Counted from the stretch's first letter, positions 1,085 to 46,230 are shown. The stretch: 64,000 bases of DNA from a virus (IMGVR_UViG_3300021255_002539:350061-414060), one strand, 5' to 3'. The notes: generated from the letters alone by a model not told the origin. Program-made: numbers and translations.

Positions 1085-2296
1085 TCATAATGTAATCAAG
1101 TCCTTGTTCTTGAGATACGGAGTTGGATCAAGCAGCCTCTTGTCCCTATCACCCTCAAGTTTCCAACCATCAAGGTGACAAGTCTCTGTGCGCAGTTCAA
1201 GGTGGAGCATCGCAACCGAGTGGTTCCTGATGTCGGGTCGATACTTCTCTGGCCTGAGGACGGGTGTGACACGTCCTACAATAGTAACTCCCCTAATCAC
1301 GCCTTCCCCAACCTTAATGGTTGGCTTCTTAAGCTCGCCATATGTGACCACGCCGGATTTGCCTTCGACCTTTACGCACCAAGTTGGGTTCCACCATGGG
1401 CAATCAGCCTTCTGGCCAGTGAACTCGTATACTGCCGTGACAATTCCATCTTCAACAGCATATACAGGGGCATCTGCATGGGTGTAGATGTCCACTCCCT
1501 CGTGGATGTCGAACTTGCGTATTGCGCCAAATGCACCTGGCTCGTAGAACCTCGGAATGTAGTCCCTGAACTTCTCCCTGCACTTTCCACGGACGAACTC
1601 GTTGCTGTTTGCGTCATACACGAATTTGCCGAACATGCCCTTGTCGTTCTCGGATTGTCCATTGTATACGGGCTTTCCAAGCAAGTCCTCCTGCTTGATG
1701 GGTTGATACCAGACATGTCCCTCAACGATGTTCTTGATTGTGGTGATGTCAGCGAGACCACCGATTCCAATTCCACCACATGCCAGGTTCTTGACAGTAG
1801 GCTCTATGAACCTGACGAAATCGAGTGAGTCGAGATATGTCCTGTTCTTCTGGTAAATCGGCCCTTGGTACATCATCGAGTTCATCGCCTCGCAAATGTA
1901 GAGCTTCTTTCCACAACCCATCCATGCAGCAAGGATACTGGACACGAAATCGTCGGCTACACCATTTGCCATCTTGCCAATGATGTTGTAGTCTGCTGGA
2001 CAGACAACGCAAACGTCGGCCCAACGAACAAGGTCTATGTGCTTGACTGGGTGGGATGGCTTGTCGTGCCAATCAAGTGCCTCCCGTTCAATTGAGATGT
2101 AGTTGGAGTAGTGGTTGGTGTAGAATGTCTGGCTTTCGTCGTCCTTTGAGTTGCTTCCCTTGCTCAACGCCATCATCTGACCTGCTGCCTTGGTCATGTA
2201 GTGCTTGACCTCGTGCCCATCTTCCTTGAGTTGATGCGCCAGCTTATGGGAGAGGTAGGCCGAGACAGAACCAGTGGATAGTAGAAGGATGTTCAT
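1085..2296 (-). CDS. coaC: CoaC-like flavoprotein (phosphopantothenoylcysteine decarboxylase) fused to an M23 peptidase-like domain
   Basis: TGSVSAY, HIDLVRWAD..CPADYNIIGKMANGVADD, AMNSMMY and LACGGIGIG motifs; C-terminal HEGVDIY...LHLE...DPTPYL. Confidence 0.85.
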   Translation of the reverse strand: MNILLLSTGSVSAYLSHKLAHQLKEDGHEVKHYMTKAAGQMMALSKGSNSKDDESQTFYTNHYSNYISIEREALDWHDKPSHPVKHIDLVRWADVCVVCPADYNIIGKMANGVADDFVSSILAAWMGCGKKLYICEAMNSMMYQGPIYQKNRTYLDSLDFVRFIEPTVKNLACGGIGIGGLADITTIKNIVEGHVWYQPIKQEDLLGKPVYNGQSENDKGMFGKFVYDANSNEFVRGKCREKFRDYIPRFYEPGAFGAIRKFDIHEGVDIYTHADAPVYAVEDGIVTAVYEFTGQKADCPWWNPTWCVKVEGKSGVVTYGELKKPTIKVGEGVIRGVTIVGRVTPVLRPEKYRPDIRNHSVAMLHLELRTETCHLDGWKLEGDRDKRLLDPTPYLKNKDLITL

Positions 2297-6509: not shown

Positions 6510-8760
6510 TTATTTACCATTTGTTGGCTTCGACATCAGCCAATTGCAGAACTCCCTGTAGTAGCCATCGTCTGATATGTCAAGACTGGGATGTTCCCTT
6601 TGGAATGCCTCGTCTGCCTCCACAATGTCCTTGTACAGTTCTGCGTTCTTGGTTGAGGATCCAGAAATGGCAACCCTCGCCCGATCAACCATGTCAGCCA
6701 AGTCGAATGTGTCGTACACAATACCCTCGGCCCCATCGTTCCATGCCTGCAGAACGACATCCTCAATCGAATCAACCACCACGGTGCTGTCCATCAATAT
6801 CCACCTCCACATACCCGGATCTTCTGCCTTGACGACGAGACATCCTCCAGCGTGTTGTCTTCGTTTGTGGAGGTTGTTGTCTTTCTTGACTTGTCGAATC
6901 GCATTGGACAAGGAATTACGCCCCAAGCCCCAAACAGGCGGTTGCACTTCTCGCACTTGCCGCAGAACTCCTTCACAGAATAGCCATCCTTGCTGAACTT
7001 CAACTTCAACCAACAAAGGACATCCCTCCAATGCCACCTACGCAACCTCATAGTTCAATTGTCTCCTGATTTACAATGGTCTTGGACTCTCCAACCACAT
7101 CCACATATTCAATTCTGCGAACTTCTCTGCTCACCAATCCAACGTAGTAGTGGTTTCCCTTTGAGTCCTTTACGATATACGCAAACACACCAGAATCGGT
7201 ACTGCAAGCAGCAACAATCTCCGTATTCTTTGGTATGGAATGCCTTGATGTATTGTCCACAAGATGTCCAACTATGCCATTGTCGGTCGTGGTATTCTTT
7301 GGATGGAAATTGATAATGATGTCAATGGCTATTCCAATGCCAATGGCAATGACTACCAACACCATCAATACGGCCTTAACGCAATTCCACAGTTCCCTTC
7401 CTTCTATCATGCTCGTTTCTCCTTTCGCTTCAGAAGTTCCCGAGCAGAGGCAAGCCAATTCTCGACATCCTTCGTGAACTGGTCGTTTGGATCATGCTTC
7501 TTCATCAGCTCAAGAAGCAGCGCCATCATCGGCTGCGCCTTGAACACCAACTCAATTGCCTTGACATGCTTCGCCATGATTCTTTTCCTTTCGCACAGTT
7601 ATCTGCAACCCATCGTAGTCGTCAAGTCCAGTTCCATGGTTGTCCCACCATTCACTGACCTGCTTGAGGACTTCCTTCTTCGTGAACTCGCCCTCTATGT
7701 GGCTTGCCACAGACGCCTCGCCACCTTTCTTGAAGGCAGTGACAGCAACCCGCTTTTTCCTCTTTTCTCCCATTCCAAACATCATTTCTCATCCTTTCCG
7801 TTTTCAGTGTGGGACGCAACATAATTGTACATTTCGCCCATTACTGCTTGAATGTTCATTTCGGCGTCCGACAACTTGCGCTTTGCCTCTGGCGAAAGCA
7901 AGTCATATGCCCCAACTCGATATATGTACTGTATGCCATCAGCAACGTTTATTAGATTGGCATATCCAATGCACATCACCCTGTCGCCATATGTCATGCC
8001 ATGGTCCCTTTCAAGTCCACGGCACCAACCATCTTGGACTCAATCACTGAAATCCACTTCTTCATCAAGTCGTTGTATGCCTTTTCTGCCTCTTCCTTGG
8101 TCTCGAAGAACCCAGTCCAATGCCTACTGCAGGTTATCTTGTCTATGTAGCCATACGATTCCAAACTGTTGTCGAATGGATTTGGATCTGAAGACCACAC
8201 GAATATGCCACCCCTATCCGCTTCAGCCTTTACAATCTTCACCTTCTTGAAGACGACCTTGTGCTGCTCTGGATCCCAAGGATTGAACTTGAACGTACAC
8301 ATCCACATTTCATCGAGAACAGGTGTGTATAGTTCCTTGATCGTCAGCTTCTTCTGCTTCTTGAATATGTCGAACAGTTTCATTTGCCTTCAGTCCTCCA
8401 TTCCTTGTACTTTCCCTTGTTTCGGTTCCAATGCTGTCTGCAATTGGATGCAAACATGGCATTTCTCGCCATCTGAAGTGGCTTGTTCATCCCCATCCAC
8501 GCCTTGTCGAACAACTCTGCATTCTTCTCGGTCTTTCTCTTCATGAACTTGAAGAAAGCCTTGTTAAAGTCGTCCATGACAATAGACATCGCAGACCTTG
8601 CAGCATTCCAATCATGGACAGTTCCAGTTGCTGGCGTTTTCCTGTTGAGGATGTCGTATGTATAGACAACTGACTCCCGAAACTCCATCGCGTCCTTGTA
8701 GAACGCATCCAACGGGTCACTGTGCTTTATATTCGCCCTGTAGTATTCCCACATGGTCAT
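6510..8760 (-). CDS. Run of small hypothetical early ORFs (including 7048-7410, 7552-7785, 7782-7997, 7994-8383, 8380-8760)
   Basis: Tightly coupled ATGA overlaps and RBSs; no recognisable domains. Confidence 0.55.
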
Positions 8761-8789: not shown

Positions 8790-9932
8790 TTATACAACTT
8801 CTGGAGATTCAAGTTTAGCCTGTTCAAGACGGTTTTCGGCAATCTTGAAGTACTCCGACTCCTTCTCAATGCCCAAGAACCTTCGTCCAATCTCAATGGC
8901 AGCAACACCAGTAGTCCCACTCCCCATGAAGGGGTCAAGAACCAATGCTCCCTTTGGAGTGACCAACTTGACAAGGTACTTCATCAACTCAATCGGCTTG
9001 ACTGTTGGATGTACATTATCCTTGCCCTTCTCCTTCTTGCTTGCCTTGGGGCAGTAGAAGAACCTTGCCGAATCGTTGGGGAACACTTCAAGAACTTCAT
9101 CTGACCCGTCGTGGATGATGTTGGCCGGGAAGCGTCCCTTCAAGTTTGCATGACCCACTTTCCCCTCTTCTCCTGTAATTCTCCAACTCGCACCTTTGTC
9201 TGCACCGTGGTTGTTCTTGCATCCACGCAGCTCCCTAATCAACGGGTTTGTCGCAGCCGTTCCACCTTCCTCATAGGGAACGCGGCACTCGTCTATGTTC
9301 AATCCACCAACACAGTTCTTCATCACGTTCTCGACAACCGTTCCCTCCACTGGTTTCCGTGCAAGAACAATAGGCTCAAATGCTGGCTTGAGGCAAGTTC
9401 CCCAACCACTCCACTTCTTGGCTTCGTCCGTAATCGGAACCAAGTCGTCCCTGGGGCATGTACAAGGATTGGCCGAGAAGAATGGCTTTCCACACTTCGG
9501 ACACCTGTTCTTCACTCCAAAGCCAATAATTCCTCCCTTGTCTCCAACTGCTTCCCTCACTGCCCTTTGCGCACCCAACTTCTTGTCTATTGCCTTTGAG
9601 ATGTCCATTGACTTCGGCATTCCTGAGCTGTAAATCCAACCCAAACAATCCCTGACCTCCCAACCAGCATCCTCTATGGCGCAAGCCAGCCGATGGTATG
9701 TGCGTGTTCCACCAAACGCCAGAAGATGCGCACCAGGCTTCGCAACCCTCAACGCACCCTTCCAGAACTCAATCCCAGGAACACCATGATCCCAGTTCTT
9801 CCCCATGAAGTCCAATCCATATGGGGGGTCAGTGACAATGGCATCAATGGAATTGTCCGACATGCGCTTCATCGCGTCCAGACAATCAGCATTCACCACG
9901 CCATACGGCTTTCCACTATTGTTTTCACTCAT
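8790..9932 (-). CDS. DNA N4-cytosine/N6-adenine methyltransferase (beta class)
   Basis: IVTDPPY, HPTVKP and VLDPFMGSGTTG motifs. Confidence 0.92.
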   Translation of the reverse strand: MSENNSGKPYGVVNADCLDAMKRMSDNSIDAIVTDPPYGLDFMGKNWDHGVPGIEFWKGALRVAKPGAHLLAFGGTRTYHRLACAIEDAGWEVRDCLGWIYSSGMPKSMDISKAIDKKLGAQRAVREAVGDKGGIIGFGVKNRCPKCGKPFFSANPCTCPRDDLVPITDEAKKWSGWGTCLKPAFEPIVLARKPVEGTVVENVMKNCVGGLNIDECRVPYEEGGTAATNPLIRELRGCKNNHGADKGASWRITGEEGKVGHANLKGRFPANIIHDGSDEVLEVFPNDSARFFYCPKASKKEKGKDNVHPTVKPIELMKYLVKLVTPKGALVLDPFMGSGTTGVAAIEIGRRFLGIEKESEYFKIAENRLEQAKLESPEVV

Positions 9933-12108: not shown

Positions 12109-12864
12109 TCATTTAAGTAGAAGTGAATCATTCAGAACTATCTTGCCATCTACAAAGTCCTTATACTGTTTCTCACCAATAAAGTAGATTCTTATTCCTG
12201 GATTGTTTTCCAAGACAAGACGCATCTTTTCCTTGTCTTTGTCTGAATAATAACCCTTTACTTCAACATACTCGTTTGTATCTGGTAAGTAGAAATCTGG
12301 ATTATAGGTTTTGCGTATACCATCTTTAATGTATTTCAATGTTTTGTTCCTAATCCAATTTATACCATTTGCTGTCAATTTGTTGGCAACATTCTCCTCC
12401 CAATGACCCCTTACAGTATATTCAACACCATCTAAATTCTTCACTTTGTACCAACCAACATCTTTGAATCCCACTTTACACGAATCAAGATATTTAGAAC
12501 GAATTTCAGAAAGTTTCTCCCGCGTTTCTTTGGTATGATGGAAAGTTCTTCCTTTCTGCGAGATTTTGTTTTTCTCTGCTATTTGTCTTACTTTTGTTGA
12601 TGTTTCACTGGTCAATCCCTTGTTCCATGCCATTCCCTTCTTGAATCCATGTTTCTCTTTTCTGTGGATTTGCATTTCGTTTCTTGTATGAAAAAGACCT
12701 CCACAAATTGTACACTTCCAAGTGTGTTGTTGCCTATTCACATTAAAATTGCACACATGGTGCTTTACTTGCTTCGCAATATACGAACATCTACAATGCT
12801 TGGAGCAGAACCTTCCGCTTCCATACGAGCCATCATGCTCGTTTCCACATACTTCACATATCAT
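12109..12864 (-). mobile_element. Free-standing homing-endonuclease-like gene (Zn fingers, NUMOD3-like motif, PD-(D/E)XK nuclease) inside the tRNA cluster
   Basis: CEVC..CSKHC, CTIC..H, WNKGLT, HTKETREKLS, YNPDFYL..VEVKG; low GC; TATAAATA upstream at 12913-12920. Confidence 0.75.
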
Positions 12865-13429: not shown

Positions 13430-13580
13430 ATTGAAATGGTGTGAGATTCGAGGACTCTTACCCCCATTACCATCAACTTGGAATGCGGACTTGACGTCCT
13501 AATCCACATTCTGCTTGATGACCAAGCGGACTCACCGGCCGAATGGCATTCTACCAAGGAGCGACCTTGGCATTGAAACT

Positions 13581-13663
13581 TGGAGCCCCGATACAAGTAC
13601 GACTTGATCCAATCCTCCATTACTGGGTGGGATTGACATTCCCCGTTATGGAATTACCGAAGC
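13581..13663 (-). ncRNA. CCA-ended tRNA-like RNA with an elongated anticodon arm
   Basis: GCTTCGGT/ATCGGGGC-TCCA stem; CAATCC...GGATTG long arm. Confidence 0.55.
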
Positions 13664-13687
13664 ATGTTGAAATCGTCTATATGAAAT

Positions 13688-13761
13688 TGGTTGTCCCGCC
13701 TGGGTTCGGACCAGGTCTAAGGGTATCAAAAACCCCTGTGCAGCCGATACACCACGGGACA
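13688..13761 (-). tRNA. tRNA-Gln(UUG)
   Basis: GGGGT-TTTTGAT-ACCCT; U1-A72; CCA. Confidence 0.9.
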
Positions 13762-13770
13762 TTTTGAAAT

Positions 13771-14027
13771 TGGCGGTGGCGTTGGGTTCGCACCAACAGT
13801 CTCGTGGGGCTTTGGGGAATTTTTAGTACGCACGAATGCAAGGCGAGAGCCTATAGTCAACTGAGGCAGAACTTGACATTCCAACCCCAATCCAAACTCG
13901 CCAACCCCAGGGTCACCTGGCTCCCTGCATGGAAGTTGTCAAGACCTCCACGCAACTTCTGTGACACTACTTGCTCCTCGTTCCCTTGGAACATGCCCTT
14001 TGTTCTTTTGTGTTTGAACTATCCACC
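13771..14027 (-). ncRNA. 257-nt tRNA-like RNA with a ~180-nt structured domain in place of the anticodon loop
   Basis: GGTGG/CCACC-GCCA acceptor, GTTC..GAAC D-arm, GGGC/GCCC stem, GTTGG-TGCGAAC-CCAAC T-arm. Confidence 0.6.
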
Positions 14028-14034
14028 ATTGAAA

Positions 14035-14340
14035 GGGTCTGCAGACTGTCTTTACATTGGAATCTCTGCAGGGAAACCAACAACCAGACCTGACTAGCAG
14101 GGTTTCGTTTCTCGTCTGGTATGCCATCTAGCATAGCGATACACGCAGTGGGCTACGCTGCTCCCTGGGTCTGCTTTCCTCCCAGCTCAGCCCAACACGT
14201 TCTTGGGACTTGCATATGGCGTCTGTGATATCCCACAATTGACTTCAATCAGCACATCGGGATTCGGACCACGGTTTCACTCTTCGTGTATTCTACCTTT
14301 TTGAACTATTTGTGCCTAATCTTCATGTGACAGACGCACA
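14035..14340 (-). ncRNA. Structured ncRNA containing an embedded tRNA-like core
   Basis: GCGTCTGT/ACAGACGC stem enclosing D-arm, short arm and T-arm; bounded by TTTCAA spacers. Confidence 0.5.
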
Positions 14341-14346
14341 TTGAAA

Positions 14347-14625
14347 TGCTTGAAGCGGAGATTGCTTATGTTTGACCGGTGCACCGGCAAGTTCATCGTG
14401 TTTACGGACCAGGAAAGAACCAGCTGACCCCTGAATCCTATTTGTTAAGTGTCATGACACTTAACAACCCACTGGACGCTTGTTATGTCCTCTCCGCAGA
14501 ATCTATCCAGGGGAAATCCACTTGTGGCATGCGATATATTTGGCGCAGGTGCCGTCGGCGCATATACTTTGTTTGCCGCACATATTCCCATATGAACCAA
14601 TTGATCCACATGTGCCATAAGGGGA
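14347..14625 (-). ncRNA. Putative structured ncRNA with a 26-bp perfect palindrome
   Basis: ttgttaagtgtcatgacacttaacaa at about 14442-14467; non-coding unit between spacers. Confidence 0.4.
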
Positions 14626-14628
14626 AAG

Positions 14629-14718
14629 TGGTGTGGAACGCCGGATTCGGACCGGCAATGTCCCGTTGGGGACGCAGGATTAGGAATCCTGTCGAGTGTC
14701 CAATTGTCGCAGTCCCAC
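14629..14718 (-). tRNA. tRNA-Arg(CCU) with a long variable arm
   Basis: CAGGA-TTCCTAA-TCCTG; V-arm GTCCC-CAAC-GGGAC; CCA. Confidence 0.82.
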
Positions 14719-14728
14719 ATGTTGAAAT

Positions 14729-14846
14729 TGGTGGCTGTCTTGCGGGTATCAACCCCGCTGTCTCCCCAACGGGCGATGCATCAACCCATCTTGTCAGGGA
14801 ACCCGTTTTACGCACAGGCCAGGACCAAATACCTGAGTATCAAGCC
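14729..14846 (-). ncRNA. CCA-ended 118-nt tRNA-like RNA
   Basis: GGCT/AGCC-ACCA terminus; T-like arm GCGGG-GTTGATA-CCCGC; no normal anticodon arm. Confidence 0.5.
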
Positions 14847-14855
14847 ATTGAAATC

Positions 14856-14930
14856 TGGCGGGGTAACGGGTAGTCGAAACCCGATAGTCTGCTCGACAGG
14901 CAGATGAACTAGCCGTTGTTCTATTACCCC
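14856..14930 (-). tRNA. tRNA-Asp(GUC)
   Basis: TCTGC-CTGTCGA-GCAGA; GCCA. Confidence 0.9.
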
Positions 14931-14934
14931 GAAA

Positions 14935-15074
14935 TGGTGTGGTCTACCGAGATTGATTTCTCAATCTCGGCTTCATGCTTCATCGTCCCAACCGTGCTTG
15001 GTTTTCGCTAATCTATTATTGGTCGGAACTCCACATGCATGTCGTTCGCAACGCGAACGATCCCTGCGACCCAC
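14935..15074 (-). ncRNA. CCA-ended 140-nt multi-hairpin RNA
   Basis: GTGGGTC/GACCAC-ACCA; hairpins TCGTTCGC/GCGAACGA and CCGAGATTGA/TCAATCTCGG. Confidence 0.55.
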
Positions 15075-15097
15075 AGGTACTGAAACCAAATCGTCCA

Positions 15098-15182
15098 ATT
15101 GTCAAAGAACAACCTTTGTCTAATGCGCAAGCATTATTCAAAGAGCATATCCAATTATACAACACATCCAGTCAAATGTAAA
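15098..15182 (-). promoter_or_regulatory. Internal sigma70-type promoter with boxA-like antitermination sites
   Basis: TTTACA-N17-TATAAT followed by GCTCTTTGAAT and GTTCTTTGACAA. Confidence 0.75.
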
Positions 15183-15231
15183 GTGGTTTCCGATGTTGGA
15201 TTTGAACCAACGACTCCAATCGGAATCAAAC

Positions 15232-15307
15232 TGGTAGATGTGGAGAGAATCGAACTCCCGACGCATACCATGTGAAGGTATCGCTCTAGCCACTGAGCTA
15301 CACATCC
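15232..15307 (-). tRNA. tRNA-Val(CAC)
   Basis: ATACC-TTCACAT-GGTAT; CCA. Confidence 0.92.
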
Positions 15308-15316
15308 ATTTGAAAC

Positions 15317-15395
15317 TGGGTCGCCGTGCAGAATTCGAATCTGCGATTTCCTCGTTCACAGCGAGGCGTCTTAACCAGGCTCGACTAACGGCAAC
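15317..15395 (-). tRNA. tRNA-His(GUG)
   Basis: CCTCG-CTGTGAA-CGAGG; G-1:C73. Confidence 0.92.
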
Positions 15396-15402
15396 ATCTA
15401 AA

Positions 15403-15495
15403 TGGCGGATGAGGCGCGTCCCGGCCGCGCATGCCCGATTTCTCGGAGCCATTCGCTTTCCAAGCGAAGCTGTTTGCCAATTCCAGCACTCATCC
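15403..15495 (-). tRNA. tRNA-Ser(GGA)
   Basis: TTCGC-TTGGAAA-GCGAA; long V-arm; GCCA. Confidence 0.88.
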
Positions 15496-15501
15496 ATAAA
15501 C

Positions 15502-15595
15502 TGCGGAGCAAGCAGGCTCTGCCCCTGCGGGGGACATTTCTGCCCCACGACGGATTAGCAATCCGCGCCCTTATGACTGACTTGGGTATTGCTCC
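15502..15595 (-). tRNA. tRNA-Ser(GCU)
   Basis: GCGGA-TTGCTAA-TCCGT; long V-arm; no encoded CCA. Confidence 0.85.
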
Positions 15596-15606
15596 ATGTT
15601 GAAATC

Positions 15607-15690
15607 CGGATGCGGAGCGACTCGAACGCCCAATCCCGTGAAGGACACCTGAGTTCAAATCAGGCCGACTACCAATTATCACACGCATCC
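15607..15690 (-). tRNA. tRNA-Ser(UGA)
   Basis: CCTGA-TTTGAAC-TCAGG; long V-arm; no encoded CCA. Confidence 0.85.
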
Positions 15691-15705
15691 ATAAATTGAA
15701 ATCTG

Positions 15706-15791
15706 CAGATGGAGCTGGAATTGCACCAACATGTGACTTTCGCCACCCCGACTTTCGAGGTCGGACCTTTACTGTTTAGGAGAATCCATCC
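15706..15791 (-). tRNA. tRNA-Ser(CGA)
   Basis: CCGAC-CTCGAAA-GTCGG; long V-arm. Confidence 0.82.
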
Positions 15792-15837
15792 ATCTTGTGA
15801 AATTGAAAAGGATATGGCGTTCCTGTTTCGCAAGATT

Positions 15838-16432
15838 ATGAACCTTGGACGACATGGACTCAAAGAACTACTCCTGGTGGCTGGCAACATCTTCCGGAAG
15901 TTTTATGTGCTTGGCTGTTTCAGCACCTCCAGTTGGCAGATATTTCGTTCTTAAGGCAAGCCATCTTGCCTTGGTATTTTTCTTTCCTCACGAAAGAAAA
16001 ACAACCAACAAAAAGAAATCATCTATTAAATCAAAAGAACCATCCGATTGGGAGTTGCTTCACCTTGCGGTTCATCAACCATCGCAGGACTTCCCACGAC
16101 TTTTCAATATATCCCATTTATCTGCATCCAAATGCCAGCAATTGCCATCTTGTTGAGAGTTATCACCTTCGTATGTTCTAGTTTATCAGAACACACCTCT
16201 CGGTGGTTGCCGTGGTGAACATTGCATTTGGGTAGCCTTTCTTTCGGGTATGCACTCAATGGAAGGACTTGAACACTTCATGGTAATGGGCTTTTGCTCA
16301 TCTACATTAAGATGAACATCGCCAGCCAACCTACCATCATGGCGAATGACCGAACGAGTTGCCACTACTCTCGTCACTGAGCTGCCGTTGAAGCATTAAG
16401 CATACTGGGTTTAACTCCCCATCTGGTTCATT
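15838..16432 (-). ncRNA. Large (~595 nt) structured ncRNA, in the ROOL/GOLLD size class or novel
   Basis: 5' ATGAACC pairs with 3' GGTTCAT; GGTTGGCTGGCGATGT pairs with ATGTTGCCAGCCACC; many hairpins; no credible ORF. Confidence 0.65.
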
Positions 16433-16436
16433 TAAA

Positions 16437-16514
16437 TGGCACCTCTGGTCGGACTTGCACCGGCAAATATCCTGGATGAAAACCAGGTGACTCTACTAAT
16501 TTGTCTACAGAGGC
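16437..16514 (-). tRNA. tRNA-Glu(UUC)
   Basis: CCTGG-TTTTCAT-CCAGG; GCCA. Confidence 0.9.
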
Positions 16515-16521
16515 ATTGAAA

Positions 16522-16597
16522 TGGCAGTCTTAATGTGATTTGAACACATGTTTCGGGAGTGAGGTTCCCGCGTCCTAACCAACTAGACGATAAGACC
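16522..16597 (-). tRNA. tRNA-Glu(CUC), C33 variant
   Basis: CGGGA-ACCTCAC-TCCCG; GCCA. Confidence 0.85.
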
Positions 16598-16604
16598 ATT
16601 CATT

Positions 16605-16701
16605 TGGCAATATTCAACCAATGTTCCAAGGGGGAATCGGACCCGTTGTTGCCTATCGTCATACTTCTCACCAGAGTAGGAACATCGGTCATGGAATTGC
16701 C
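16605..16701 (-). ncRNA. tRNA-elbow mimic on a long extended stem
   Basis: GGCAAT/ATTGCC and ACCGATGTTCC/GGAACATTGGT stems enclosing D-like and T-like (GGG TCCGATT CCC) arms. Confidence 0.5.
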
Positions 16702-16721
16702 CAACCATCTTGCAAGTCATT

Positions 16722-16798
16722 TGGAGAGCAAGGTGGGAATCGAACCCACATTTGCGGATTTGCAGTCCGCCGCCAAGACCACTATTGGCAACTCGCCC
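16722..16798 (-). tRNA. tRNA-Cys(GCA)
   Basis: GCGGA-CTGCAAA-TCCGC; UCCA. Confidence 0.92.
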
Positions 16799-16879
16799 AT
16801 AAAAATGTGGAAGGTGGGTCTGGTTACCCACAACTTGTTCCTGGACAGGATTGTTTTTGCTGAAGACTACTTCCACAAA

Positions 16880-16953
16880 TGGCAAGGGCGATGCGAATCG
16901 AACACATGTCTTCAGTTTTGGAGACTGAGATACTACCACTGTATGACGCCCTT
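16880..16953 (-). tRNA. tRNA-Trp(CCA)
   Basis: TCAGT-CTCCAAA-ACTGA; GCCA. Confidence 0.92.
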
Positions 16954-16961
16954 ATTGAAAC

Positions 16962-17041
16962 TGGTAGGACTGGCGAGACTCGAACTCGCAAATCTCTTCG
17001 TTCGTAGCGAAGTGCAGTAGATCCGATTTTGCTACAGTCCC
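16962..17041 (-). tRNA. tRNA-Arg(ACG)
   Basis: CTTCG-CTACGAA-CGAAG; CCA. Confidence 0.92.
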
Positions 17042-17049
17042 ATTGAAAT

Positions 17050-17123
17050 TGGTTGGGGATGATGGTATTGCGCCACCTCTAAGAGGTTCAGAGCCTCCTG
17101 TACCACTTTTATACGAATCCCCA
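17050..17123 (-). tRNA. tRNA-Gln(CUG)
   Basis: GGAGG-CTCTGAA-CCTCT; U1-A72; CCA. Confidence 0.88.
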
Positions 17124-17133
17124 ATTGAAATCC

Positions 17134-17319
17134 TCAAACTTCCTCGCAGAAGTGCTTGCTTATCCTGAAACCCACTCCCTTGAGTTGATACACAGGCTTG
17201 CCATCGTTTCCAGTGCATTCGCCAATCACCTTGAAAGTCTCCCCTTGGTGTTCCCTAATCCACCTCTTGAAGTCCTCTGATTGCCAGGACGCGCTTGATT
17301 CAACTACCTTTACGAACAT
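17134..17319 (-). CDS. Small hypothetical protein within the tRNA operon
   Basis: Strong AAGGAGG RBS; 61 aa. Confidence 0.65.
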   Translation of the reverse strand: MFVKVVESSASWQSEDFKRWIREHQGETFKVIGECTGNDGKPVYQLKGVGFRISKHFCEEV

Positions 17320-17348
17320 GTCTTTCCTCCTTGTTCTTCTTGATGAAA

Positions 17349-17501
17349 TGGTGGCAACATCCGATTCTCACGGAACCTGCGACCACCAATGTCGCTGCGC
17401 TCATATGACCACCCTATCTAGAGTCAGATGGTCAAGTCCCTGTTTCTGGTGGAAGGCGAATTCAATTCCCTTCATACCCTTTGGGATTATACTATATTGC
17501 C
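17349..17501 (-). ncRNA. Oversized (153 nt) tRNA-like RNA with CT-CTA-GA near the tip of its anticodon-position arm
   Basis: GGCAATA/TGTTGCC-ACCA acceptor, expanded D region, TGACCAT/GTGGTCA arm, GCGAC/GTCGC V-arm, TCCG-TGAGAAT-CGGA T-arm. Confidence 0.6.
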
Positions 17502-17545
17502 TAAATTGGTGGACTAGTGCCGCACAAGGCGACATTGACCATAAA

Positions 17546-17620
17546 TGGTGGACCGGCGGGGTAACGCTCCCCGACTCTTTCGTTGCGAACGAAAAGTGCT
17601 GCTTCTATCACTATCGGCCC
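17546..17620 (-). tRNA. tRNA-Ala(CGC)
   Basis: TTTCG-TTCGCAA-CGAAA; G3-U70; CCA. Confidence 0.88.
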
Positions 17621-17632
17621 ATTGAAAGGGAA

Positions 17633-17780
17633 TGTTCAAGTTATCGGGCCCAGCCCTCTGGCTTCTGCAAGGTTGGAACTTGCGAGAACTTTGCTGCGTG
17701 GGGAAACCCCCTTGGCAACCGTAGCCAGTTTGTCATTTGTTAACTATGGTGGAAAGTTCCGACTTGAATGAACTTGAACA
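17633..17780 (-). ncRNA. ~150-nt structured RNA
   Basis: TGTTCAAGTT/AACTTGAACA closing stem with internal hairpins. Confidence 0.45.
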
Positions 17781-17794
17781 AAAGCGCACACCTA

Positions 17795-17864
17795 CCACAT
17801 GGCTGGACTCGAACCAACACCTCCGCCCTATGACGGGCGGTGTGCCACCATTACACTACACATG
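17795..17864 (-). ncRNA. tRNA-like RNA with a non-canonical anticodon loop and no CCA
   Basis: Normal D and T arms (GTTGG TTCGAGT CCAGC); CCGCCC-GTCATA-GGGCGG arm. Confidence 0.55.
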
Positions 17865-17976
17865 ATTTCGACCACTGCAAGATGGTCTTGCCCGGTGTCT
17901 GGCAAAATGTTCTCAATTATACGAAATAATCACCCTCAAATCTGTTGGCTGCAACCATGAGTTTGGGGGTTGAAAT

Positions 17977-18309
17977 TGGTGGAGCGGAGGGGAATCGAAC
18001 CCCTGTCCGAAACAGTCCTGTTGGACGCTTTCTACAACAGTTTCCTATGTCATTTAACCTCTCATCATAATAGGAATCAGATGACAGGCGAGAATCCCCA
18101 TTGTAATGTTCCATCGGGTGGGGAAACCAGACCCAATGGACATGCCAGACAATGAATTCCCTACTCAAGCCCCATCTGGCGTCAGGCTTTTTTGGTAGGC
18201 TTAAGCAGCCATTCTGTAATCGTTGCCGTTTACTTGTTTTGGAATTTACGCCTCCCGGCATGGTGCTGCGTCTTTGGGATATTGCTCCGTCGAATACCTG
18301 AACCGCCCC
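17977..18309 (-). ncRNA. ssrA: tmRNA, tag (A)GNDYRMAA*
   Basis: 5' GGGGCGGTTCAGGTATTCGAC; 3' GGGGTTCGATTCCCCTCCGCTCCACCA; GTAAAC-GGC resume codon; tag ends GCT GCT TAA. Confidence 0.95.
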
Positions 18310-18319
18310 ATTGTCAAAT

Positions 18320-18395
18320 TGGTGGGAGGATGTGGGATCGAACCACAACCTTCGGATTTTCAGTCCGTAGTACACACCAAGTATACGATCCTCCC
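18320..18395 (-). tRNA. tRNA-Phe(GAA)
   Basis: CGGA-CTGAAAA-TCCG; CCA. Confidence 0.92.
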
Positions 18396-18402
18396 GATGA
18401 AA

Positions 18403-42640: not shown

Positions 42641-44299
42641 TCAGATGGACATGTTCTCAATGTCCTCCACCATGGACTTCAGCTTGCCAGCCTTGTACAT
42701 GGAGATTATGTCAAAGATGTTGTTCGACCAGCCCGAGACATTGAGCAGCTTGAGGTTGGGGTTGAACACGGAGGTGCCACTCTGGCCCCTGATGTTGCAG
42801 CACACCGTAAGGCAATTGGGGTTGATCTTCCTGAATTCCTTGAACAAGTCCTGGAACTTGACTCTGGATGTGCTGGTGCAGTCCCAACCACCCTCGCCAC
42901 CATCGCCAATCTCCATGTCAGAGAACACGATGAAGTTGTCGATGTGCTTCTTCTCCTTGATGACATTCTTGAGGAACTCGTATAGTCCATTCTCGGTCGC
43001 TCCACCACACTTGTCGCCCTCGTCGTAAGTGTGCTTGTTGAACTCAAGCAGACCAATGCCCCTGTCCATTGCAGGAGAGATTAGCCTGTCTCCGAACATG
43101 CCAATGTAGACATCCTTCTGCTTGAACGCCACGATGGAGCCGAAGAGATTGCCAATGTGCGCCGTATTGACGCTGCTCCAAGGCGAGACGCCCGAAGATG
43201 CCCAAGAATCCCCCCTCACAGAGCCAGAGTGGTCGATGAGGACAGCGCAGTTGCCCTCCAGGTCAGGGACATTCTCGCAGGCGATGTTCATCGCCTGTTC
43301 AAGTGCCTTTGACACCTTGGACTTCAGCTCAGAGAGCTTGCTTGCGGTCATGTTGGAGGATTTCGCTTCGTCTGACTCGAACTTAATCTTCGTGTCGGTT
43401 TCGTCCCCATTAATGTAGTCAGACATCTCCAACTTGTTCACAGCATCGTATGCAGACATGAACCTGAATGGCAGGAGCCTGCTGTTCACAACCTTGTCGT
43501 GGTTCGTGAGCTGCTTGGTTGCCTCGTCAATCAAGTCAGGAGCATAGAGCATGATGTTCCTGAGGTTGCGGAGCAGGTTCATTATTGGCATTCCCTTCTC
43601 AAGCACAGCCTTGATTGCGTCGTGCTTCGCCAGAACCAGCTCCTGCTCGTTGCTTGCGTTCTGGCCCGTAGCTGCCATCTCCTTCTCCAGAATCTTGGAG
43701 TCGTATGTCCCATCAAGGGACTCCCCATGCATCAGGCGGCGATATGCCTCCCTGTTCTTGTCAGTTGGGGTTGGATGGAGCAGATTCACGATGTCCACCA
43801 AGGACAGGTACTTGCCCTTCATCTTGTACTTGTCAATCTGATATGGCGAGAGATTGGAAAGCACAGTGCCAAAGCCCCTCTTCATGGCGTTGGGTACCTT
43901 GCGAATCTTGCCATCGGTGGCATTCATCTTGGCATAGCAAGACAGAATCTCGGAAATGTCGTCTGGCCGAAGGACAATATGCTCGTAGAAGGACTTGAGC
44001 CAGGTTGGGTGCGTGGAGTCCTTACAGACCAATGCAGCAAGAAGATGGCTCACCGAGCGGAGGTTTCCCTTCGTCCTGGCATAGAGGGCCAACTTCGCAG
44101 TGAACTCGTAGCCACACTTTTGGGCAAGCTCAACGATGTTCTGCGTCAACTGATTCTCGGTGACATAGTATGCGTCAGTGAGGAAAGTGGTCATGACCAT
44201 GGAAGTCAAGGCTTCCTTGTCAGACAGAACATATGCGTCCTCGCCCATGAAGTTCTGCTCCATTTGTGCGCCAGCCTTCTTCTCGTTGAACTTGCTCAT
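42641..44299 (-). CDS. rsr: Ro60/TROVE-domain RNA-binding protein with a vWA domain
   Basis: KLALYARTKGNLRSVSH, RPDD, YQIDKY, DIVNLLHP, LLRNLRN, SRLLPFRFMSAY and DHSGS MIDAS-like motifs. Confidence 0.93.
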   Translation of the reverse strand: MSKFNEKKAGAQMEQNFMGEDAYVLSDKEALTSMVMTTFLTDAYYVTENQLTQNIVELAQKCGYEFTAKLALYARTKGNLRSVSHLLAALVCKDSTHPTWLKSFYEHIVLRPDDISEILSCYAKMNATDGKIRKVPNAMKRGFGTVLSNLSPYQIDKYKMKGKYLSLVDIVNLLHPTPTDKNREAYRRLMHGESLDGTYDSKILEKEMAATGQNASNEQELVLAKHDAIKAVLEKGMPIMNLLRNLRNIMLYAPDLIDEATKQLTNHDKVVNSRLLPFRFMSAYDAVNKLEMSDYINGDETDTKIKFESDEAKSSNMTASKLSELKSKVSKALEQAMNIACENVPDLEGNCAVLIDHSGSVRGDSWASSGVSPWSSVNTAHIGNLFGSIVAFKQKDVYIGMFGDRLISPAMDRGIGLLEFNKHTYDEGDKCGGATENGLYEFLKNVIKEKKHIDNFIVFSDMEIGDGGEGGWDCTSTSRVKFQDLFKEFRKINPNCLTVCCNIRGQSGTSVFNPNLKLLNVSGWSNNIFDIISMYKAGKLKSMVEDIENMSI

Positions 44300-44462: not shown

Positions 44463-46169
44463 TTACATTTGCGTCTGTACTGGCATTGGCTTCACTGGGG
44501 TGTTGACGACGCCAGAGAGGGAGAGCAACTGGCCCGCTGCAGACGCACCATTTTTCATCGTCTCAATCACGGCGGCAGCCGAATCAACGATGCCCTTCTC
44601 CATCAAGTCAATCATCTCGCCAGTGCCCAGATCCACGCACCTGGTCCAAGCAGAAATCGGAATCTTGTATGCCTCCGTTTCCTTGTGGGTAAGATGTTCC
44701 TCCCTGTTGGCTGCCTGAACCACACCAAGCGCGTAGTGGGCGTTCTGCTTGCCAGAATTGCCACACACCGTGAGGAATGGCTTGCTCAAGGCGTCTGCGA
44801 ACACTCGGAATCCTGAAGCCTCCTCGGATGTCAGCTCTGCAATGTGCTCTGCAAGCCACGCATACAGTTCGTCCTGAATCGTGAGGTATGTCAAGCCACA
44901 TCCAGGGACGATTCCATGCTTCTGGGAACTTGATACGCTTGCAAAAGCGTCATCCACCAAGTCCTTCTTCTCGTGCATCTCAGCCTCGGTCGCTCCACCA
45001 ACAGATATGATGCCGATTCCAGACACCATGCGGGCCTTCCTCGTCTTGTTGATGTTGCGATCATAGTCAGTGGCCTTCTCGTCGGCAAGCTCAGACTCAA
45101 TCTCGGCAACCCTCTTGTCGAACCTGTCCTTGACTATAACAGATGGGTCGGCTATGATGGAGGTGGATTCCGAGGTCACAATCACCTGCTTTGCAGAACC
45201 AAGGATTGTCATGTCTGAACAGACACTCTCAAGCGTCAACCCGGTCTCAGGTGAGATTACCTTGCCACCCGTTACTACTGCCAAGTCCTCCATCATCTTC
45301 GTGCGCCACTCGCCATAGTTCGGTCCAAGGATTGCGCAAATTGGCAGACCGCGAATCTTGTTCACGATGAAGGTGTTGAGGATGTCTGGGTCGTAGTTCT
45401 CTGCCACCACCAATATCGGGCGGTTCAACTTGCTCAATGCCTCGAATGGCTTGAGAAGCTCGCCAAGCACCGACAGCCTCTTGTTGACAAGCAAGATGAT
45501 TGGATTGTCAAGCACAGCCTCCCCATGCTCGTTGGTTGCGAAGTAGGGGGACTCGAAGCCACGGTCGATGGTCATGCCATACACAATCTTGGAAGTCGTC
45601 TTGTCTGTGTTGGAAAGCTCGACTCGCGCCATTCCATCCTTGCCAATCTTGGAGAACACATCGGTGAGGATCTTCGCAATCTCGTCGGAGCCATTGGCAG
45701 AGACCTTCGCCACATTGTAGATGTCCTGGTCAGTCTTGACTGGGGTGGACAAGTTCTCAGCAACCAGCTTTTGCGCGAGTTCGCTGGCCTTGTTGATGCC
45801 CTTCCTGAGCAAGTTGCCATTTACCCCGGCTGTGAGGAATGTATGCCCCTGTTGGAAGATCTCGTTCGCCAAGATGCAGGTGGCGGTCGTTCCATCGCCA
45901 GCCTTCCTGTTCGTCTCGTCTGATGCTGACCTAATCACGCTCAACGCGATGAAGTCTGACTCGGTCTCTGGCTCTGTCATCGAGCGCAAGACGGAGATTC
46001 CGTCCTTCGTCACCCTGGCAGTCTTGCCATTGAGCAGGAACACATTGTGCCCATATGGACCAGCGGTCTGAGCCACTATGTCCGAAATCTTCTGCGCCGA
46101 CTTCTTGACGCCAAGCAACACTTCCTCGGTATTGCCATGAATCTGTGTAGAATAGTTGTTGTTATCCAT
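44463..46169 (-). CDS. groEL: Chaperonin GroEL-like protein
   Basis: TAGPYG, VTKDG, AGDGTTAT, DRGFESPYF and VGGATEAEMHEKKD motifs. Confidence 0.95.
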   Translation of the reverse strand: MDNNNYSTQIHGNTEEVLLGVKKSAQKISDIVAQTAGPYGHNVFLLNGKTARVTKDGISVLRSMTEPETESDFIALSVIRSASDETNRKAGDGTTATCILANEIFQQGHTFLTAGVNGNLLRKGINKASELAQKLVAENLSTPVKTDQDIYNVAKVSANGSDEIAKILTDVFSKIGKDGMARVELSNTDKTTSKIVYGMTIDRGFESPYFATNEHGEAVLDNPIILLVNKRLSVLGELLKPFEALSKLNRPILVVAENYDPDILNTFIVNKIRGLPICAILGPNYGEWRTKMMEDLAVVTGGKVISPETGLTLESVCSDMTILGSAKQVIVTSESTSIIADPSVIVKDRFDKRVAEIESELADEKATDYDRNINKTRKARMVSGIGIISVGGATEAEMHEKKDLVDDAFASVSSSQKHGIVPGCGLTYLTIQDELYAWLAEHIAELTSEEASGFRVFADALSKPFLTVCGNSGKQNAHYALGVVQAANREEHLTHKETEAYKIPISAWTRCVDLGTGEMIDLMEKGIVDSAAAVIETMKNGASAAGQLLSLSGVVNTPVKPMPVQTQM

Positions 46170-46230
46170 TGTTGTCGTAAACCTTTCCATGTGTTGTAAT
46201 TATACGAAAACCACATTTGCTCCACAAATG

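Follow-up and report, generated by a model that had tools for sequence, protein, structure and literature searches.

Comparative data indicate that a gap separating two tRNA genes in a phage genome of 414 kb, originally predicted to hold one RNA of about 595 nt closed by its termini and a long helix, encodes two self-contained structured RNAs, here called elements A and B. We are highly confident that these are two separate RNAs and not one giant RNA. They are read as separate, often neighbouring RNAs because each closes on itself, because they also occur apart and because no pairing between them is conserved.

Genomic setting of the gap

The window, i.e. the whole stretch of 64,000 nt that was analysed, forms the final 64 kb of an IMG/VR phage record 414,060 bp long, in which direct terminal repeats are present. 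Its ORFs are long and use the standard code, and among them are a T4-like portal protein, a Cpn60 chaperonin and a TROVE/Ro60 protein. ARAGORN and Rfam together place 27 tRNA genes and a tmRNA gene at 11.9-20.9 kb, all on the minus strand, giving an array of about 9 kb. Long tRNA operons are typical of huge phages and the non-tRNA spacers within them are usually overlooked. The gap lies, as first proposed, between genes for serine and glutamate tRNAs, both on the minus strand:

16437-16514, minus strand: tRNA-Glu(UUC), complete gene flanking the gap
15792-16436, minus strand: gap between tRNA-Glu(UUC) and tRNA-Ser(CGA), 645 nt
15802-15808, minus strand: UUUCAAU punctuation motif, between B and tRNA-Ser(CGA)
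15705-15791, minus strand: tRNA-Ser(CGA), complete gene flanking the gap

On the minus strand, strong promoter-like sites are found only at 21163, 20790 and 15182, and transcription past the gap would meet no strong terminator-like site before 11650-11627; given these positions, the simplest interpretation is that the gap is transcribed with the tRNA operon. Relatives carry a TATAAT box and a motif resembling boxA, GATCTTTGA, with A as the first unit to follow. The model of A has many G-U pairs; read from the plus strand these would turn into C-A mismatches, which identifies the minus strand as the one transcribed. The heptamer UUUCAAU occurs in 19 minus-strand copies within the array (13430-20299), mostly immediately before tRNA 5′ ends, and the window as a whole contains 39 copies against 18.7 expected, a number that no shuffle attains; from this placement it is likely a processing or leader signal. 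A near-copy, UUUAAAU, is the leader that follows tRNA-Glu and directly precedes the terminal stem (P0) of A.

Other members of the array are unusual in their own right. ARAGORN calls a tRNA at 17793-17866 (minus strand) with a two-base anticodon that is not determined (Rfam tRNA score of 43 bits), and this adjoins the tmRNA gene at 17977-18309 (tag GNDYRMAA). A 251-aa ORF at 12109-12864 (minus strand), within the array, carries a zinc-finger-like N-terminus, MICEVCGNEHDGSYGSGRFCSKHC, and an endonuclease I-like domain (PF05367), and a paralogue with the same N-terminus is found just upstream of the promoter of A in a 434-kb relative (L016, about 8800-9550, minus strand). The ORF looks to be a free-standing homing endonuclease that moves about in the array.

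The gap has no credible ORF, as originally predicted, be it under the standard code (table 11) or with recoded stops. The longest minus-strand ORFs are of 51-73 aa and none is conserved among homologues, whilst recoding (TAG=Q, table 4) gives only frames that run into tRNAs. Moreover, homologues of the gap differ by frame-breaking indels and whole inserts. The claim that the gap forms structured RNA agrees with its folding energy, which for the minus strand is -197 kcal/mol (z = -3.4 against shuffles). However, folding energy alone proves little because the plus strand folds about as well (z = -3.7).

Homologues and alignments

Via the portal protein (86-92% identical) two complete relatives, 434 kb and 418 kb long, were reached, and BLAST in both returned conserved blocks with stretches between them that could not be aligned. 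Scanning for patterns drawn from the invariant blocks then added other contigs of viral and metagenome origin, from which chance matches were removed; additional short-pattern matches in IMG/VR (L023-L028, L076-L077 and L079-L084) were chance, and L078 was kept. In total there are 14 distinct copies of the 5′ block (A) and nine of the 3′ block (B), and invariant blocks of 46 and 22 nt stand next to unalignable inserts. In the 414-kb genome both A and B are single copy. Distant-mode blastn against GenBank phages found nothing similar to the gap. The invariant 18-mer used as a probe gave 16 matches in 185,579 prokaryote genomes, all of them chance, and no host or prophage copy was found at that stringency.

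Base pairs were counted on a nine-sequence alignment for A (A2; RNAalifold plus inspection) and on a second alignment for B (A6). MAFFT alignments of all 13 homologues of A and of the five shortest were set aside, as a strand of helix P5 was misplaced in them. The covariation counts below come from 9-14 sequences of a narrow clade, with portal proteins 86-92% identical, which is below the size for a formal test of the R-scape type, and the sequence invariance among these relatives may partly reflect shared ancestry.

Element A

The features of A, listed 5′ to 3′ on the transcribed strand, are:

16034-16432, minus strand: element A, whole structured RNA, 399 nt, with terminal stem P0 in all 13 homologues checked
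16424-16432, minus strand: P0 5′ strand AAUGAACCA, directly after the UUUAAAU leader
16406-16423, minus strand: junction GAU and hairpin P1 (UGGG/CCCA) with a conserved 8-nt loop, GAGUYARA; P1 covaries
16400-16405, minus strand: P2 5′ strand GUAUGC, pairing with GCAUAC at 16248-16253; compensatory changes in two pairs
16383-16399, minus strand: UUAA and hairpin P2a (UGC-UUCAACG-GCA), invariant in all homologues
16257-16382, minus strand: helix P3, GCUCAGUG / CAUUGAGU in the window, closing expansion I1
16244-16256, minus strand: 3′ strands of P3 and P2 and 5′ strand of P4 (AGU-GCAUAC-CCGA); P4 covaries
16117-16243, minus strand: expansion I2, 127 nt in the window and 7 nt in minimal forms
16044-16116, minus strand: 3′ domain, P5 (UGGGA/UCCCA) around Px and Py; P5, Px and Py covary
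16082-16099, minus strand: hairpin Px, covarying
16054-16080, minus strand: hairpin Py with expansion I3, covarying
16044-16047, minus strand: P4 3′ strand UCGG, pairing with the P4 5′ strand CCGA
16034-16042, minus strand: P0 3′ strand UGGUUCUUU, with covarying complementarity

The terminal stem is formed by 6-12 contiguous pairs in all 13 homologues checked, in sequences that are unrelated. In the window the P0 5′ strand AUGAACCA (16424-16432) has UGGUUC (16034-16042) as its partner, a pairing that is conserved and covaries, and relatives carry CAUCUCA/UGAGAUG, CUGGCCA/UGGCCAG, GAGAGAGCCA/UGGCUCUCUC, CUAUGCA/UGCAUAG, GCUCAUGUA/UAUGUGAGC or UUCUAUGCA/UGCAUAGAA. The internal helices vary in the same way. 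P1 exists as UGGG/CCCA, UAGG/CCUA, UGAG/CUCA and GAGG/CCUC, P2 has the consensus GURUGC/GCAYAC, and P5 (consensus UGRRA/UYYCA) has the variants GGG/CCC, GAG/CUC, GGA/UCC and GGG/CUC. P4 follows CYGA/UCRG, with CCGA/UCGG replaced by CUGA/UCAG in L035 and L032. These are the only two sequences with U-A for C-G in P4 and also the only two in which the P1 loop ends in AGA and not AAA; the joint change could mark a tertiary contact or shared ancestry. Hairpin P2a is invariant in every homologue and covariation therefore speaks neither for nor against it.

On alignment A2, 97.0% of cells are paired as against 84.1% in shuffles, and double changes are seen in 24 of the 48 pairs (56 cells). None of 500 shuffles matches any of the five measures used, and sliding the partners by 1-3 columns reduces pairing to only 33-41%.

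Around these freely changing helices, A keeps some 60 near-invariant nucleotides in its junctions and loops. The length of A is 140-430 nt in relatives, with minimal forms of about 140 nt (L049 and L050), and the window version reaches 399 nt because of inserts at I1 (~120 nt), I2 (127 nt) and I3 (~17 nt). All three sites carry different inserts in other lineages. L049 and L050 have just 6 nt at I1 where other copies have 73-137 nt, and the I1 sequence in the window lineage is unrelated, being a lineage-specific insert that contains the 5′ arm of the predicted long helix (16316-16331). Invariant nucleotides in the junctions and loops, together with helices that covary and expansions that are tolerated, suggest a specific tertiary core in A, which would be a binding or active site.

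The alignment-derived fold of the core reads as a four-way junction of P0, P1, P2 and P4 with cloverleaf topology, in which P1 is a D-arm-like hairpin of 4 bp with an 8-nt loop, the P2 arm bears P2a and I1, and the P4-P5 arm terminates in Px and Py. The arrangement is consistent with the P5, P4 and P0 strands forming a near-continuous helix, where P4-P5 would stack on P0 as the T stem does on the acceptor stem, and the 7-nt loop of P2a, UUCAACG, would read like a T-loop. One contig, L043 (AUXO014225957.1, 1379 nt), begins exactly at the first base of P0 and ends at the last base of a tRNA-Ser; such ends could come from breaks in the assembly or from a template derived from RNA.

Element B

Downstream of A, and following a short spacer with a motif that may be read as boxA, lies element B:

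16005-16018, minus strand: spacer between A and B with boxA-like UCUUUGU, a motif conserved before B in relatives
about 15810-16001, minus strand: element B, structured RNA of about 190 nt, single copy; pair counts from alignment A6
15977-16001, minus strand: hairpin H1 (alignment A6)
15954-15971, minus strand: hairpin H2, GGCAAG-AUGG-CUUGCC, covarying from AA/UU to UU/AA to UA/UA
15863-15952, minus strand: nested helices H7 (AAGAAC/GUUCUU), H6 (CUG/CAG) and H5 (CUGG/CCAG), from outside to inside, with covariation
15907-15926, minus strand: hairpin H3, enclosed by H7/H6/H5, six sequence versions with compensatory changes
15885-15906, minus strand: invariant 22-mer AUAAAACUUCCGGAAGAUGUUG, enclosed by H7/H6/H5
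15810-15861, minus strand: 3′ domain with GAGUCCAUG..CAAGGYUC, CYUG-CGAAA-CAGG and GAACGCCRUAU; one-sided changes only, weak pair support

On A6, 99.1% of cells are paired, double changes occur in 10 of 36 pairs and none of 500 shuffles reaches as high a covariation score; over A and B together, slid controls are paired in 25-43% of cells. The closing helix H7 alone has five complementary versions (AAGAAC/GUUCUU, AUGAC/GUCAU, AGGU/ACCU, AGAC/GUCU and GAGC/GCUC), H6 likewise has five, and H5 changes from CUGG/CCAG to UUGG/CCAA. Much of the 3′ domain and the 22-nt AUAAAACUUCCGGAAGAUGUUG never vary. P2a in A, and H4 and the 3′-domain helices in B, show no compensatory variation and are thus without covariation support.

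One RNA or two

The alternative to two RNAs is a single bipartite giant RNA of the GOLLD or ROOL type, with A as its 5′ domain, B as a conserved 3′ domain, a variable linker that can hold a tRNA and possibly assembly into a multimeric cage. We consider this unlikely, although the arrangement of the two elements lends it some support. A precedes B in the window and in six other lineages (seven in all), and in five arrangements (L016/L020, L021/L043, L022, L042 and L036) a tRNA-Pro(UGG) gene sits between them, the order of A, sometimes tRNA-Pro, and B being kept throughout. GOLLD and ROOL are both found near phage tRNA islands (bioRxiv 10.1101/2024.12.08.627333; PMC5737381). The window also contains the long-range helix of the original prediction, GGTTGGCTGGCGATGT (16316-16331) with ATGTTGCCAGCCACC (15876-15890), which joins A to B by 15 bp at -27.4 kcal/mol and is equalled by only 2 of 200 shuffles.

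However, this helix is not conserved. None of the five relatives with both elements has a counterpart, 73-195 of 200 shuffles being as good there. Its 5′ arm belongs to an expansion found only in the window and in its 97%-identical relative, and its 3′ arm (15876-15890) includes the H5 strand CCAG, which is locally paired with covariation. The same holds for the paired termini that had been proposed to close the RNA: ATGAACC (16426-16432, minus-strand reading) and GGTTCAT (15838-15844) are both present but are not conserved as a structure. GGUUCAU at 15838-15844 sits inside the invariant GAGUCCAUG..CAAGGYUC hairpin of B, and its equivalent in relatives is GGCUCAU, whatever the sequence of P0. 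Pairing of the P0 5′ strand with this GGYUCAU was considered and rejected, as it is broken in three of the seven lineages. Of the two edges originally drawn, the right one (16432) is the true 5′ end of A, whereas the left one (15838) falls inside B. Over the whole length of the elements, complementarity between A and B (RNAduplex) is not above that of shuffles.

The two elements moreover close separately, A by its covarying P0 and B by its own nested helices, and they occur apart. A different tRNA directly follows A in L049, L035 and L078, and other tRNAs lie 150-270 nt after A in L050, L051 and L054 (with a near-identical copy, L037). In the contig sequence of these seven, several of which are short downstream, B was not found next to A. 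In L050 the order is inverted, with B placed 4.4 kb upstream of A. Where tRNA-Pro lies between A and B its excision would separate the two halves of a bipartite RNA, and there is no match to a GOLLD or ROOL model even at E<=10. A GOLLD-like RNA stays a minority possibility because GOLLD is reported with tRNAs in its linker. Setting aside a single molecule, a functional partnership between separate A and B RNAs is conceivable, because their order is kept in seven lineages and the helix in the window is better than chance.

The stretch between A and B holds further conserved sequence in some relatives. Some relatives, two of the arrangements with tRNA-Pro among them, have there a third non-coding module, conserved and about 230 nt long (L017 7703-7937, minus strand; L021 about 1690-1900; L036), which is absent from the window. 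A conserved element of about 95 nt lies right after tRNA-Pro in L016 (about 7990-8100, minus strand) and L021 (about 1900-1995, minus strand). It has a 7-bp acceptor-like stem and a T-arm, GUGGGYCCGAAUCCCAC, ends in UGCUUCCA and is not called by ARAGORN; by these features it may be an unusual tRNA or a tRNA mimic.

Relation to known RNA families

The original prediction held that a stretch with covariation in its homologues and no hit among the Rfam models, ROOL, GOLLD, OLE and the group I and II introns in particular, would indicate a new class. Searches with Rfam 15 on the gap, three longer relatives and a minimal A of 158 nt, at gathering thresholds and at E<=10, returned only the flanking tRNAs and chance-level matches, and covariation is abundant; by that reasoning A and B would be new RNA classes. 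The GOLLD model had no match at its gathering score, nor at E<=10 on the gap and the L021 and L017 relatives, and the ROOL model had none on the gap, the relatives or the minimal A. The OLE, group I and group II intron models did not match the gap, and the flanking tRNA-Glu and tRNA-Ser genes are uninterrupted. A and B are thus families new with respect to Rfam 15, and are set apart there and not against the 10,006 candidate structured RNAs, many of them tRNA-like, that were identified by covariation in viral contigs of IMG/VR (PMC10690425), a catalogue that shares both data source and approach with this work.

GOLLD resembles the gap RNAs in that it is large and structured, has no assigned function and lies in the tRNA islands of phages and prophages. 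Its 3′ part is conserved, its 5′ part varies more and the linker sometimes contains tRNAs (bioRxiv 10.1101/2024.12.08.627333), which parallels the succession of A, tRNA-Pro and B in five relatives. However, GOLLD is one RNA of >800 nt, whereas A (140-430 nt) and B (about 190 nt) are each self-closing and are also found apart. ROOL shares with the gap a place near phage tRNAs, many multistem junctions and the size class of the gap as a whole; ROOL averages 581 nt and has 10 highly conserved nucleotides (PMC5737381). A by comparison has about 60, and the gap comprises two RNAs.

With tRNA, YrlA and the tRNA-like domain of tmRNA, A shares a 5′/3′ terminal stem, cloverleaf wiring and a D-arm-like hairpin. 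The T-loop-like hairpin UUCAACG, the tRNA-type leader motif and the place in a tRNA operon are further tRNA-like traits. Unlike tRNA, A has no anticodon loop, no encoded CCA and arm expansions of about 100 nt, and its T-loop-like hairpin is on the arm that matches the anticodon arm, not on a T arm. Neither ARAGORN nor the Rfam tRNA model calls A a tRNA, no CCA follows P0 in any homologue and the tmRNA model has no match to A.

Proposed explanation and its rivals

We regard it as probable that A and B are two independent structured non-coding RNAs of a tRNA/tmRNA operon, each of a family absent from Rfam. Both would be freed from the precursor by the enzymes that excise the flanking tRNAs. On topology and sequence pattern, P0 resembles an acceptor stem, at whose base RNase P would cleave. 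The products would persist as compact, stable RNAs and may serve in the infected cell as trans-acting scaffolds, for specific binding or for catalysis, that are linked to tRNA or to translation. The constant company of tRNAs suggests tRNA metabolism or translation as the target, and we put such a role forward tentatively. A more specific reading, possible but doubtful, is that huge phages have in A a new functional RNA machine, which would be a ribozyme or else an RNA of tRNA shape with a T-loop that specifically binds or processes tRNAs or a translation factor, built on a catalytic or binding core of about 140 nt with lineage-specific expansions, and that B is a second independent class.

Taken by itself, the proposal that A is a ribozyme, self-cleaving or acting in trans, that matures the long tRNA precursor and has its active site in the invariant junction, seems to us improbable. 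Some 60 near-invariant junction and loop nucleotides with covarying helices and variable expansions form a pattern typical of ribozyme cores, and A is always within tRNA arrays. A related array, moreover, contains a near-threshold match to the Pistol ribozyme (L050 3162-3228, plus strand; 32.8 bits against a gathering score of 34.5; E = 0.01). However, A itself matches no Rfam ribozyme family at E<=10 and no cleavage-site signature was identified in it. Its conserved CAGUCGGAU strand is mostly base-paired in P4 and P5, and the narrow phylogeny inflates the apparent invariance. RNase P RNA was considered and rejected, as the string that resembles GGGAAGUCC belongs to a plain hairpin with covariation and is not a P4 strand, and so were hammerhead and hairpin ribozyme cores, whose junction layout differs. 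Mimicry of SRP RNA or rRNA, for which word matches were only 8-9 nt, can presumably be set aside.

We give little credence to A being a Y-RNA-like partner of a phage Ro60, a role in which it would link this protein to a nuclease in the manner of bacterial YrlA RNAs. The genome does encode a TROVE-domain protein (PF05731, E = 2.6e-20; 42641-44299, minus strand), 26 kb away, and Y RNAs pair their 5′ and 3′ ends, carry tRNA-like modules and are reported in phages (PMC4201824), which the terminal stem and cloverleaf-like junction of A recall. However, the YrlA model has no match to A at E<=10. The 5′ strand of A reads P0-GAU-GGGGAGU, without the proposed Rsr-binding motif GNCGAAN0-1G (PMC4201824), and A is 140-430 nt long as against 80-130 nt for Y RNAs. 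A phage Ro60 implies a Y-RNA partner, perhaps among the unannotated RNAs of the array. Sub-threshold YrlA matches of 29-32 bits (cut-off 69) are found outside A, at L050 4558-4666 (plus strand) and L051 2133-2205 (minus strand), and one of them is just upstream of the tRNA-Thr that precedes A. The TROVE/Ro60 gene adjoins the Cpn60 chaperonin gene (44463-46190, minus strand).

Lastly, a non-functional spacer or decayed tRNA genes, with structure arising from chance and shared ancestry, is scarcely credible: both strands do fold about equally better than shuffles and the homologues are from closely related phages, but P0 sequences are wholly replaced with complementarity kept, compensatory changes affect 24/48 pairs in A and 10/36 in B where slid controls are only 25-43% paired, and the 46- and 22-nt invariant blocks adjoin inserts that cannot be aligned.

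Implications

In summary, two spacers of one tRNA operon prove to be well-defined RNA families with covariation-supported folds, and A combines an unusually large invariant core with tolerance of expansions. Few large phage RNAs without an assigned function are on record, among them GOLLD and ROOL, and the two families extend that list; the minimal A of about 140 nt (L049 and L050) suits structure and activity assays. These data suggest that in megaphages a tRNA array is an operon for stable RNAs of diverse kinds, beyond a supplement for decoding. Moreover, should A bind tRNA or act on it, this would be relevant to the ways in which phages seize translation or escape defences that target tRNA.
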